Part shown: one piece after another, positions 984 through 3,850 of the stretch
Position numbering within the stretch: position 1 is the stretch's first letter
Layout: each line of letters begins with the position of its first letter
Source of the DNA: a virus
Lineage: Duplodnaviria > Heunggongvirae > Uroviricota > Caudoviricetes
Length of the DNA stretch: 12,059 nt
Strand: one strand, 5' to 3'
Virus record (IMG/VR): IMGVR_UViG_2541047758_000005
Span: 1 to 12,059 of that record
The notes under the pieces: generated by a model
Database searches by the model: none
Told to the model about the DNA's origin: nothing
What the model saw: only the letters and a program-made list of their open reading frames with translations
Translations under genes and position numbers: made by a program

Positions 984-1186
984 ACATAAAATCCTGCAGG
1001 TCCCCTGCGTCGCTGTGTCATGCCGGTCTGCACTTCCAGCTCCGCAATGTATTTTTTCAGGTCAGACAAGGAAGTGGCCGTAAACTCCACTCGCCGTCCG
1101 TCTTTTTGTACCGTTGCCACCCGTTTACCTGTCATCAGGTCATGCAGTGCCGCACGGGCAGCGGCAAGTTCTTCCTGTCGCGTCAT
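980..1186 (-). CDS. W: Head-tail joining protein gpW
   Basis: 68-aa [71 protein letters not shown]; same size and sequence as lambda W as recalled; start overlaps A stop, stop overlaps B start, as in lambda. Confidence 0.9.
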
Positions 1187-3108
1187 TCATCCTCTCCGGA
1201 TAAGGCACGGGCGTAATCTGCCAGTGTTTTCTTGTTGGTTGCTGCACCATCCTCTTCCTGCAGGCTCGCCAGCAGTGCGCTGAGATCCAGCTGCCAGCGG
1301 GAAATACTGATGCGCAGCGCCGCCAGCGCATAAACGAAGCAGTCGAGTGCCTCATTGCGTCGCTTTTTGCTGTCCCACAGTATTTTTTTCCTGCCATCCA
1401 CCCATTTTTCGACCTGCTCTTCAGCAGTCAGCTGCTGCGCTTCGGTCAGATCAAAAATATCCGGGTTATTCGGGAAGTGAACGGCACCGGGAAGCGGTTC
1501 ATCCCCTTCTGGCGTCAGTGTGAAGCGGTTATAAATCTGCTCTTTCGCGGTATCCGTGCCGATTTCGGTAAGGTAAACCCCGTTTTTGTTTCGCTTACGT
1601 GGCATGCTGGCCACCGGCTTTCCGTAGACGGATGCCCCTTTAATGGGGATCACCCGGAACAGCCCATGTTTTTTCGAGCGTTCATACACAATGGTCGGGT
1701 CAATCCCGCCAATATCCCAGCAGATACGGGATATCGACATTTCTGCACCATTCCGGCGGGTATAGGTTTTATTGATGGCCTCATCCACACGCAGCAGCGT
1801 CTGTTCATCGTCGTGGCGGCCCATAATAATCTGCCGGTCAATCAGCCAGCTTTCCTCACCCGGCCCCCATCCCCATACGCGCATTTCGTAGCGGTCCAGC
1901 TGGGAGTCGATACCGGCAGTCAGGTAAGCCACACGGTCAGGAACGGGCGCTGAATAATGCTCTTTCCGCTCTGCCATCACTTCAGCATCCGGACGTTCAC
2001 CGATTTTCGCTTCCCATGTCTCACCGAGCGTGGTGTTCACGAAGGTTTTACGTTTTCCCGTATCCCCTTTCGTCTTCATCCAGTCTTTGACAATCTGCAC
2101 CCAGGTGGTGAACGGGCTGTACGCCGTCCAGATGTGAAAGGTCACGCTGTCCGGTGGCTCAATCTCTTCACCGGATGACGAAAACCAGAGAATGCCATCA
2201 CGGGTCCAGATCCCGGTCTTTTCGCAGATATAACGGGCATCAGTGAAGTCCAGCTCCTGCTGGCGGATGACGCAGGCATTATGTTCGCAGAGATAAAACA
2301 CGCTGGAGGGATCATCCGGCGTCCATTTGAGGCCAAACGGCGTCTCTTTATCGCCGAATTTAAGGTACTGCTCCTCCCCGCAGTGCGGGCAGGCAACATG
2401 AAAACGCATAAAATGCGGGGATTCACTGGCTGCACGCTCAATCTGACAGGTGCCTCTCACTTTGGGCGTGGAGCCACGGATGGACTTTGGCCAGACCGAG
2501 CCTTCAATACGCTTGTCACCCAGGAACGTCGGAGAGCCTTCCTGTTCAATATCATCATCAAAGGCAGCAAGTTCATCATAACCCGCCACATCCACCGACT
2601 TTTCACGGTAGTTTTTTGCCGCTTTACCGCCCAGGCACCAGAAGCCACGACCATTGGTGAAACGCTTCATGGTGAGCGTGTTATCCCGGTGCTTTTTGCC
2701 ATACCACGGAGCCAGCGCCAGCAGCGACGGAATATCGCGGATGGTCGGCTCAACGTGGGTTTTCATAAAGTTCTCGGCATCACCATCCGTCGGCAACCAG
2801 ATAAGTGTGTTGCGTTGCTTATGCTCTATAAAGTAGGCATAAACACCCAGCAGCATTTTGGAATAACCGACACGGGCAGACTTCACTACATTCACCTCAC
2901 GGATATAGTCGCTGCCCATCGCATTCATGATGGCCCGCTGAAAGGGCAGTGTTTCCCAGCGCCCTTCCTGGTATGCGGATTCTTTCGGGAGATAATAATT
3001 AGCATCCGCCCATTCAACGGCAGTCTGTGGCTCCGGCCTGAACAGTGAGCGAAGCCCGGCGCGGACAAAATGTCGCAGCCTGTTAACCTGACTGTTCGAT
3101 ATATTCAC
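1183..3108 (-). CDS. A: Terminase large subunit gpA (ATPase/endonuclease), full length
   Basis: 641-aa [47 protein letters not shown]..., colinear with lambda gpA (641 aa) as recalled; overlaps Nu1 3' end as in lambda. Confidence 0.97.
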
Positions 3109-3628
3109 TCAGCAACCCCGGTATCAGTTCATCCAGCGCGGCTGCTTTGTTCATGGCTTTGATGATATCCCGTTTCAGGAAATCAACATGTCGGTTTTCC
3201 AGTTCCGGAAAACGCCGCTGCACCGACAGGGGGATCCCGTCGAGAATACTGGCAATTTCACCTGCGATCCGCGACAGCACGAAAGTACAGAATGCGGTTT
3301 CCACCACTTCAGCGGAGTCTCTGGCATTTTTCAGCTCCTGTGCGTCGGCCTGCGCACGCGTAAGTCGATGGCGTTCGTACTCAATAGTCCCTGGCTGGAG
3401 ATCTGTCTCGCTGGCCTGTCGCAGTTCTTCAACCTCCCGGCGCAGCTTTTCGTTCTCAATTTCAGCATCCCTTTCGGCATACCATTTTATGACGGCGGCA
3501 GAGTCATAAAGCACCTCATTACCCTTCCCACCGCCTCGCAGAACGGGCATTCCCTGCTCCTGCCAGTTCTGAATGGTACGGATACTCGCGCCGAAAATTT
3601 CAGCCAGCTGCTTTTTGTTGACTTCCAT
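3083..3628 (-). CDS. Nu1: Terminase small subunit gpNu1 (cosB-binding), full length
   Basis: 181-aa ORF MEVNKKQLAEIFGASIRTIQNWQEQGMPVLRGGGKGNEVLYDSAAVIKWYAERDAEIENEKL..., matching lambda Nu1 (181 aa) as recalled, with N-terminal winged HTH; lies about 190 bp from cosN as in lambda. Confidence 0.95.
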   Translation of the reverse strand: MEVNKKQLAEIFGASIRTIQNWQEQGMPVLRGGGKGNEVLYDSAAVIKWYAERDAEIENEKLRREVEELRQASETDLQPGTIEYERHRLTRAQADAQELKNARDSAEVVETAFCTFVLSRIAGEIASILDGIPLSVQRRFPELENRHVDFLKRDIIKAMNKAAALDELIPGLLSEYIEQSG

Positions 3629-3639
3629 TGTTCATTCCA

Positions 3640-3850
3640 CGGACAAAAACAGAGAAAGGAAACGACAGTGGCCAAAAAGCCCGTTTTCAGCACCTGTCGT
3701 TTCCTTTCTTTTCAGAGGGTATTTTAAATAAAAACATTAAGTTATGACGAAGAAGAACGGAAACGCCTTAAACCGGAAAATTTTCATAAATAGCGAAAAC
3801 CCGCGAGGTCGCCGCCCCGTAACCTGTCGGATCGCCGGAAAGGACCCGCA
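3640..3850 (-). other. cos: cos region: cosB (R1 ~3651-3668, R2 ~3694-3710 inverted, R3 ~3751-3770, AT-rich IHF-type bend region between R3 and R2), cosN, cosQ side
   Basis: Three copies of the CGTTTCC(T/G)TTCT-type gpNu1 R-box in the lambda arrangement (R1 and R3 same orientation, R2 inverted) between Nu1 start and cosN; the sequence matches the lambda left end (rc GGGCGGCGACCTCGCGGGTTTTCGCTATTTATGAAAATTTTCCGG...) as recalled. Confidence 0.85.
3806..3817 (-). other. cosN: cosN 12-nt cohesive-end sequence (minus strand GGGCGGCGACCT)
   Basis: Plus-strand aggtcgccgccc at 3806-3817 is the reverse complement of the lambda 12-nt 5' overhang GGGCGGCGACCT. Confidence 0.85.

Follow-up and report, generated by a model that had tools for sequence, protein, structure and literature searches.

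Recent deletion very likely accounts for an intact lambda-type cos, Nu1 and A module in a truncated DLP12-family prophage

Introduction

How does a prophage without capsid genes come to hold a complete packaging module of the lambda type? The question is raised by a 12,059-nucleotide stretch of viral DNA (IMG/VR record IMGVR_UViG_2541047758_000005, positions 1 to 12,059; hereafter the window), in which cos, Nu1, A and W lie beside a portal gene of which only the beginning is left. A sequence-only reading of this DNA had offered two explanations: either the deletion that removed the portal was very recent, or purifying selection maintains the terminase for use in trans. The first has stood up to comparison with other genomes and the second has not. 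We think it very likely that the window represents a young, truncated prophage of the DLP12 family, whose usual place in E. coli is argU, and that its packaging module is intact for lack of time to decay.

Results

The features of the window are collected in Table 1. As first read, Nu1 and gpA are both free of frameshifts and full length. Their reading frames overlap. The single gpA change relative to lambda, T466I, adjoins D465 and was considered as a nuclease-inactivating substitution. This was ruled out, as complete prophages have I466 too, and so do four isolated phages (Turner, ev099, PhiR46_1 and PhiR30_1); T466I is no decay mutation, and gpA shows none of the inactivating substitutions that the earlier reading had named as grounds for refutation. 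Judged from these alignments, the terminase (Nu1 and gpA) keeps its catalytic residues and is apparently functional. W, which had been counted as part of the module, is also complete, although it lies just beyond the range originally given. The loss of the portal was likewise correctly recognized: the surviving codons of B are fused at ~674 to a C-terminal remnant of the side tail fibre gene. From lambda position 48103 through cos to 3145, window and lambda share 97.8% DNA identity, with 77 nucleotide differences that are mostly synonymous, and within gpA the ratio of synonymous to nonsynonymous changes is 36:1.

Table 1. Features of the window. Positions are those of the window; strand is given where assigned.
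Feature	Position	Strand	Basis or remark
Tail fibre assembly gene tfa, cut by window start	1-529	-	PGAP annotation of identical DNA in genomes L001 and L010
Side tail fibre gene, C-terminal remnant	530-675	-	Annotated 'phage tail protein, missing N- and C-terminus'; left end of 18-kb deletion at ~674/675
Portal gene B, first ~104 codons only	674-983	-	Translation follows lambda gpB to ~residue 103, then diverges; lambda homology stops at 674
W (gpW head-tail adaptor), 68 aa, full length	980-1186	-	67/68 identical to lambda W (98.5%)
gpA, terminase large subunit, 641 aa, full length	1183-3108	-	640/641 identical to lambda gpA (99.8%); GTG start as in lambda
Nu1 (nohD), terminase small subunit, 181 aa, full length	3083-3628	-	178/181 identical to lambda Nu1 (98%); nohD annotated in relatives
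cosB, whole	3653-3767	-	R1, R2, I1, R3
cosB R1	3653-3668	-	Exact lambda match
cosB R2	3693-3708	-	Exact lambda match
cosB I1 (IHF site)	~3718-3746	-	Exact lambda match
cosB R3	3752-3767	-	Exact lambda match
cosN	3799-3820	-	22/22 bp identical to lambda; cohesive-end 12-mer at 3806-3817
cosQ heptamer GGGTCCT	3841-3847	-	As in the last-30-bp region of lambda
ylcI, ybcW, ybcV, DLP12-type late region	within 4017-9338		L010 annotation (near-identical DNA, 5 SNPs per 9712 bp)
bor	5569-5862		L010 annotation
rzpD/rrrD/essD lysis genes	5894-7055	-	L010 annotation
Porin	7653-8750		L010 annotation
quuD	8940-9323/9338	-	L010 annotation
Second deletion junction, ~6.6 kb removed	9430-9437		L006 homology stops at 9437; hyp homology begins at 9430
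Junction of internal prophage gene hyp' with att-proximal prophage end (upstream of ompT)	9710-9712

The cos site has been preserved along with the genes. The exact lambda cosN 12-mer, GGGCGGCGACCT, occurs once in the window, at 3806-3817 on the minus strand (0.04 occurrences expected by chance), and alignment to lambda (NC_001416) gave a 100% match over lambda bp 1-133, which take in cosN, R3, the I1 IHF site and R2. The three 16-mers of cosB and I1 are those of lambda, in lambda order and orientation with R2 inverted, and are situated between cosN and Nu1. This alignment upholds the exact cosN and the canonical pattern of three R-boxes described previously. The R1 core and the heptamer GGGTCCT are also unchanged, and we take the heptamer to lie at the cosQ coordinates reported for lambda by Wieczorek and Feiss (2001). 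The cosQ element is a conserved 7-bp sequence (PMC4669245).

Relative to lambda, there are two changes upstream of cosN and three within the 25-bp R2-R1 spacer (G134A, a 1-nt deletion and T150A), leaving a spacer of 24 nt in the window. The shorter spacer can be dismissed as a cos defect, because the 24-nt form is common to complete prophages and to K-12 DLP12, whose cos region recombines productively with lambda. The window contains a complete lambda-type cos site, which is predicted to be cleavable; unlike lambda, it has no capsid or tail genes.

The window is a DLP12-type lambdoid prophage at a young stage of decay, and its closest relatives sit at argU. In approximately 140 complete Escherichia coli genomes, window positions 674-9437 are present as a single piece at 99.1-99.4% identity, running into a full portal gene; we take these genomes to hold the whole prophage, head and tail genes included. 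Complete prophages with all head and tail genes adjoin intD in strains JNE181771 (L006, where argU adjoins too) and 2014C-4135 (L025). From Q to the portal these two prophages share 99.1-99.8% identity with the window, and they additionally hold the rest of B together with C, D, E, FI, FII, Z, U, V, G, T, H, M, L, K, I, J, lom and stf (18 kb), as well as repressor and replication genes. The apparently complete prophage of 2014C-4135, at the same locus, shows just 8 differences from window positions 674-4300 (~3600 bases), and its gpA (WP_001027290.1) is identical to that of the window. Window positions 523-675 match its fibre gene at 1336-1487, which places the deletion from B to stf at 1487..19492 of the 2014C-4135 sequence, a length of 18.0 kb.

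Among the relatives retrieved, those whose flanks extend to argU are integrated there with intD and have ompT at the opposite (attR) end. In AMSCJX02, the closest genome, intD has become a pseudogene. In the window, ompT and att-end DNA are present, argU and intD are absent, and the att end is joined to an internal gene.

The cryptic prophage DLP12 of K-12 (qsr'; nohD, aaaD, cos) offers a further point of comparison. It is 97.8% identical to the window over 5.9 kb (window 2801-8692), has the same annotated genes in the same Q-porin-lysis-bor-cos-nohD order (quuD, porin (nmpC), essD, rrrD, rzpD, bor, ybcV, ybcW, ylcI, cos, nohD ... tfa ... ompT), and shares both the cos architecture and the att-side end adjoining ompT. 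However, K-12 DLP12 retains only ~102 gpA codons, which are fused to tfaD; it lacks W and any remnant of the portal gene, and it carries IS5 in nmpC and an inserted appY. The window, with its full gpA, W and 104 portal codons, is the less decayed allele, whereas its immunity and replication block has been lost. That second deletion (~6.6 kb) took the immunity, replication and nin genes and left DUF968 with its last 93 nt. The annotation shows no genes for replication or regulation between quuD and hyp, and a promoter and terminator scan of 3000-9500 gave sites no more than expected by chance. The module is probably silent: its late transcription depends on Q, and the early region from which Q expression would come has been deleted upstream.

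A resemblance to phage satellites was also considered. Gram-negative PICIs of the EcCICFT073 type, and cosmids, likewise have a lambda-family cos and take their capsids from a helper. PICIs have int, regulatory, replication and Rpp genes of their own, encode no terminase, and are of a size suited to packaging. The window element differs in that it has a terminase and is without replication genes, a repressor or an intact int, and it stands outside the PICI family.

The portal-to-fibre (B' to stf') junction gives a measure of the age of the element. It was found in 12 of 5426 complete genomes, all of them 100% identical across the junction. Base-by-base comparison of seven of the 12 with the window showed 2-5 SNPs in each across 9712 bp, and the blast scores of all 12 are in about the same range. 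Because these seven genomes differ by so few SNPs in 9.7 kb, almost no time has been available for decay. Combined with the identical gpA in an apparently complete prophage, this strongly supports a deletion that is both rare and very recent.

Purifying selection on the terminase, the other possibility raised earlier, found no such backing. Within the deletion clade, gpA has acquired two C>T changes, both synonymous, and in L010 a patch of two SNPs that restores the lambda allele. One of the 12 genomes has a Nu1 W49* nonsense mutation, and IS elements have inserted into rrrD and hyp. Representing 27% of the 9.7 kb, the module received roughly a third of these events, so there is no deficit. 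All four gpA SNPs within the clade are synonymous, which, taken at face value, hints at constraint. However, two of the four make up a single conversion patch from another lambda-type allele, and two events remain. Nor can dN/dS against lambda be used as evidence of selection on the orphan module: the 36:1 ratio reflects divergence between functional phages, the bias predates the deletion, and the identical gpA protein sits in a complete prophage.

Decay of the same module is under way in sister genomes. Independent losses of gpA comprise a gpA(1-518)::Tfa fusion in three genomes and a 422-bp deletion within gpA in two. The K-12 aaaD form, in which ~102 codons of gpA are left, occurs in 366 genomes, and a fusion of the gpA N-terminus to a fibre gene is seen in L015. 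Based on the proportional mutations, the nonsense allele and these truncations, post-deletion purifying selection on Nu1 and A is not supported.

The module could also owe its integrity to recombination. Co-resident or infecting lambda-type phages might overwrite it by gene conversion, keeping it intact beyond neutral decay and making it a two-way reservoir of alleles. A lambda-type cos-Nu1-A module is present in 3261 of the 5426 genomes, at a median of 2 places per genome, and L010, with its lambda-allele patch, does hold a second lambda-type copy. The differences between the window and the JNE181771 prophage are clustered (43 of 53 within 2000-3900), which is a mosaic pattern, and high-frequency exchange between lambda and DLP12, centred on cos, has been shown experimentally (PMC3945230). 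Against this, eight or nine of the 12 clade genomes have a single copy of the module, and conversion did not stop the truncations in K-12, L002 and L003. Refreshment is moreover unneeded here, as no decay would be expected in so young a clade, and we consider it an unlikely reason for the intact module.

A more active role would be for a helper terminase, or the resident one, to cut the chromosomal cos and package flanking DNA, with selection keeping cos, Nu1 and A. In vivo, a cos in the chromosome can be cut by lambda terminase, and prophages that have not excised give rise to 'doc' particles. The complete cos and the apparently functional terminase would be suited to such a process, lambda-type helpers are common in E. 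coli by the module count given above, and with the genes in their normal order packaging from cos would reach ompT after ~6-8 kb. However, lambda DNA is packaged in the direction from cosB to Nu1. This leaves bor, the lysis genes and the porin on the side that is not taken up and is exposed to RecBCD; the window has no Chi sites able to protect the exposed side of a cut cos. For cos phages, completion of packaging and attachment of tails also depend on a second cos. A directly oriented second site would be needed ~38-51 kb downstream, yet in AMSCJX02 no cosN with 0-1 mismatch occurs in the ~68 kb downstream.

Selection of this kind fares no better from the standpoint of the genes themselves. 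A helper supplies its own terminase, which leaves no selection on the resident Nu1 and A, and both the Nu1 nonsense allele and the gpA truncations are tolerated in nature. In addition, ompT is absent from all 12 junction genomes. The proposed cos-mediated transduction of ompT, porin and bor conflicts with established lambda packaging, both in the position of bor and the porin and in the missing second cos, and we regard trans use maintained by selection as exceedingly improbable.

The right-hand part of the window raises a separate issue. The order quuD, hyp', then ompT and hydrolase across the 9710-9712 junction is a circular permutation of the normal order, and the breakpoint on the right coincides exactly with the edge of the attR core. 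Orientation rules out a single inversion as the source and is compatible only with a circle, a tandem duplication or a translocation. If real, the junction points to a circular or amplified cos-bearing segment. It is conceivable that the window is a ~14-kb cos-bearing circle or tandem array, a natural cosmid that a lambda-type helper packages as a trimer, moving ompT, porin and bor. Such a structure could originate if attR recombined with an internal prophage site, by an integrase-type or an illegitimate event, and would carry cos, terminase, lysis genes, bor, porin and ompT. The permuted order and the breakpoint agree with this, and by our arithmetic three of the inferred ~14.0-kb units make 42 kb, which is inside the lambda packaging range. 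But the unit has no replication module, and a single tandem duplication or an assembly artefact is equally possible. The junction was also seen in no other sequence among complete E. coli genomes, PLSDB, GTDB representatives (two patterns), JGI metagenomes and IMG/VR, nor in ten genomic contexts of the identical OmpT protein. We view a packaged circle or array as very unlikely.

Discussion

A recently truncated prophage is the explanation that we favour for the locus. The ancestor would have been a complete lambda-like prophage with int, immunity, replication, Q, porin, lysis, bor, cos, Nu1, A, W, B ... J, stf, tfa and ompT. One illegitimate deletion of ~18 kb, at a 2-bp microhomology, would have started at portal codon ~104 and reached the 3' end of the side tail fibre gene, and a second, of ~6.6 kb, would have removed the immunity and replication genes. 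In this scheme the first deletion stopped just short of cos, Nu1, A and W, which would still be intact because mutations have had too little time to hit them. No selection on the orphaned module needs to be invoked.

The intactness of the module is ordinary. The element provides a counter-example, in that intact genes in a wrecked prophage are no sign of selection unless the age of the wreck is known. Together with its relatives it also forms a natural DLP12 decay series, leading from the complete prophage through the loss of B to stf and several gpA truncations to the K-12 remnant.

The most likely biological consequence is that the element acts as a homologous target with a predicted cleavable cos, at which lambdoid phages, infecting or co-resident, may gain or donate cos, Nu1 and A alleles by recombination. 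For this strain we infer as much by analogy with K-12. In the study of De Paepe et al. (2014; PMC3945230), recombination of lambda with K-12 DLP12 was some hundred-fold more frequent than with Rac or Qin, for which the frequency was ~2x10^-6. Half of the lambda-DLP12 junctions in that study adjoined cos, and the nu1, R and Rz genes of DLP12 worked in lambda. Recombinational rescue by infecting lambda is the known in-trans event at the K-12 homologue (PMC3945230).

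The packaging module and its lambda counterpart

The window is the late region of a DLP12-type lambdoid prophage of E. coli, 97.8% identical over 2801-8692 to the annotated DLP12 of K-12 MG1655. The element is a less decayed allele of this cryptic prophage, which has been known for a long time; annotation of the element already exists in RefSeq genomes.

Gene layout of the window, with minus-strand genes in lambda orientation
Feature	Position	Strand	Basis or comparison
quuD (Q)	8940-9338	-	annotation
essD, rrrD, rzpD (lysis)	7055-5894	-	annotation
cos	3847-3653	-	lambda alignment
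Nu1 (nohD)	3628-3083	-	178/181 identical to lambda
gpA	3108-1183	-	640/641 identical to lambda, sole change T466I
W	1186-980	-	67/68 identical to lambda
portal stub	983-674	-	first ~104 codons
tail-fibre stub + tfa	after portal stub	-	last in order
porin gene	7653-8750	opposite to cos/Nu1/gpA	
bor	5569-5862	opposite to cos/Nu1/gpA	
ybcV, ylcI		opposite to cos/Nu1/gpA	

Alignments with lambda confirm the anatomy proposed in the sequence-only reading (cosN, cosB boxes, full-length Nu1 and A, destroyed portal), although of the cos-Nu1-A-W module that it placed at 1183-3850 only cos, Nu1 and A fall inside that range, W lying just to the left. DNA homology with lambda (NC_001416) is unbroken at 97.8% from lambda 48103 (at least) through cos to lambda 3145, and the cohesive-end 12-mer of lambda occurs once in the window, at 3806-3817 (chance expectation 0.04). 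Lambda positions 1-133, which hold cosN, R3, I1 and R2, are identical in the window cos, and both the cosQ heptamer and the R1 core are intact. Three changes, one of them a 1-nt deletion, lie in the R2-R1 spacer and two substitutions lie upstream of cosN. Beyond ~104 codons the portal sequence turns into the 3' end of the side tail fibre gene. The gpA gene differs from lambda at 36 synonymous sites and 1 nonsynonymous site; T466I is natural variation, shared with complete prophages and isolated phages. This 36:1 pattern built up before the deletion, between working phages.

Complete relatives and the age of the deletion

Window 674-9437 forms one colinear block in ~140 complete E. coli genomes (99.1-99.4% identity), where it runs on into a full portal gene. 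The JNE181771 prophage (L006), adjoining argU and intD, keeps its immunity region, replication genes, Q, porin, lysis genes, bor, cos, Nu1, A, W, B, C, D, E and all tail genes as far as J, lom, stf and tfa. A second complete prophage, that of 2014C-4135 (L025), adjoins intD, encodes gpA under the same protein accession as the window (WP_001027290.1) and shows just 8 differences from it across 674-4300. Mapped onto this prophage, the portal and fibre stubs place the loss in one 18.0-kb deletion with microhomology of 2 bp. At 9430-9437 lies the junction of another deletion (~6.6 kb), which took out the repressor, cro, replication and nin genes (KilA-N, RusA, methylase, replication, cro-like and cI-like), leaving an element without immunity or replication functions and Q without an upstream early region. 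Differences from L006 are strongly clustered, with 43/53 in 2000-3900 (the N-terminal half of gpA, Nu1 and cos), while most differences from L025, whose porin is annotated as OmpC, lie in the porin and Q region (7000-9000). Such clustering is mosaic recombination, as is typical of lambdoid phages. The nin/early region of L025 also carries a NACHT-domain protein gene (31324-33220), likely anti-phage defence cargo.

The portal'|fibre' junction was found in 12/5426 complete genomes, all 12 of them 100% identical across it. Base-by-base comparison with seven of these 12 clade genomes gave 2-5 SNPs per 9712 bp, two of which (197 and 7033) are private to the window. The rarity of the junction and this low divergence bear out a very recent deletion, one of the explanations offered for the intact module. 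At such divergence a 2.65-kb target is expected under neutral theory to have picked up essentially no inactivating mutation, and the intact reading frames are therefore uninformative about selection.

Decay of the module, with no sign of constraint

We looked for a sign of constraint in module changes inside the clade and its sister lineages and found none. Within the clade, gpA shows two synonymous C>T changes. CUVM3 has two synonymous SNPs 3 bp apart (window 1276 and 1279 equivalents), both the lambda allele; as CUVM3 holds a second lambda-type module, this patch looks like a short tract of gene conversion. One of the 12 genomes, that of the Norwegian broiler isolate 2014-01-7375 (NZ_LR882057.1), carries Nu1 W49*, a C>T change of codon 49 from TGG to TAG at the window 3483 equivalent, which PGAP calls an internal stop. 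With it the orphaned module has its first knockout. Genes in the neighbourhood have also received insertions within the clade, IS3 in rrrD (EC02, L008 9597-10929) and IS1 in hyp (F8, L009 ~12607-13345).

In other lineages of the same prophage gpA has been lost independently, through an in-frame gpA(1-518)::Tfa fusion (3 genomes), an internal deletion of 422 bp (2 genomes), a gpA-N::fibre fusion, and reduction to the K-12 remnant aaaD, ~102 codons of gpA; the 366 genomes with this remnant include many laboratory derivatives of K-12. In MSHS 472 (L002 12319-14328) the first of these joins gpA(1-518) to the C-terminal part of Tfa, giving 669 aa that PGAP splits into two features. Given Nu1 W49* and these losses, the purifying selection on terminase that had been proposed is not supported.

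Proposed packaging in trans

As is well established, lambda terminase binds cosB, nicks cosN, keeps the cosB/Nu1 end and translocates it into the prohead; termination requires a downstream cosQ-cosN (PMC4669245; PMC6687093). The opposite cos end is open to RecBCD (PMC12315714). Packaging from the window cos would head towards position 1 and leave bor, the lysis genes and the porin gene behind. Where the gene order is normal, ompT follows cos at a distance of 6-8 kb downstream, on the packaged side, but it is missing altogether from the 12 clade genomes. In AMSCJX02, the closest genome, no second cosN at 0-1 mismatch was found in the ~68 kb downstream of cos, which consist of core genes (cus, ent/fep, ahpCF, cit). 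The suggested cos transduction of ompT, porin and bor thus finds no support; moreover, since a helper would supply its own terminase, trans use would leave the resident Nu1 and A without selection.

For the K-12 homologue, the process in trans that experiments have shown is recombination. DLP12 DNA is picked up by lambda about a hundred times as often as DNA from Rac or Qin (~2x10^-6 for these two), half of the lambda x DLP12 junctions adjoin cos, and DLP12 nu1, R and Rz are functional in lambda (PMC3945230). With a lambda-type module in 60% of complete E. coli genomes, there is no shortage of partners for exchange of this kind.

The junction at 9710-9712

From 1 to 9712 the window follows the clade; from 9710 to 12059 it follows the ompT-hydrolase segment found in other strains. 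All other genomes examined have the order ompT, hydrolase, tfa', methyltransferase, tfa ... cos ... quuD, hyp; relative to that order, the window looks circularly permuted. The right-hand breakpoint is the exact start of phage-specific DNA beside the 45-nt argU-derived attR core, upstream of ompT, and lies <=3 bp from the annotated DLP12 end in K-12. The left-hand one is within the internal prophage gene hyp, with only AAG common to both sides. The junction was absent from all collections searched (complete E. coli genomes, PLSDB, GTDB representatives, JGI metagenomes, IMG/VR and ten contexts of identical OmpT). It may reflect a circular molecule of ~14.0 kb, a tandem duplication or an artefact of assembly, each of which would fit. 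This junction excepted, the element is of low interest overall.

In the four clade genomes whose left flank was covered (AMSCJX02, E10, EC02 and F8; L001 8901-12795 and the same region of L007-L009), a VgrG / DcrB-related segment adjoining cusS stands in place of ompT, envY, ybcH, nfrA and the hydrolase (alpha/beta) gene's N-terminal part. As the window retains ompT, its strain is no simple member of the clade, in agreement with the private SNPs.

Just inside the prophage end, 9717-9745 forms an argU-like pseudo anticodon stem-loop (AACGACATTTTAAGTC, compared with AACGACCTTCTAAGTC in argU), which probably belongs to the att region for this integrase family.
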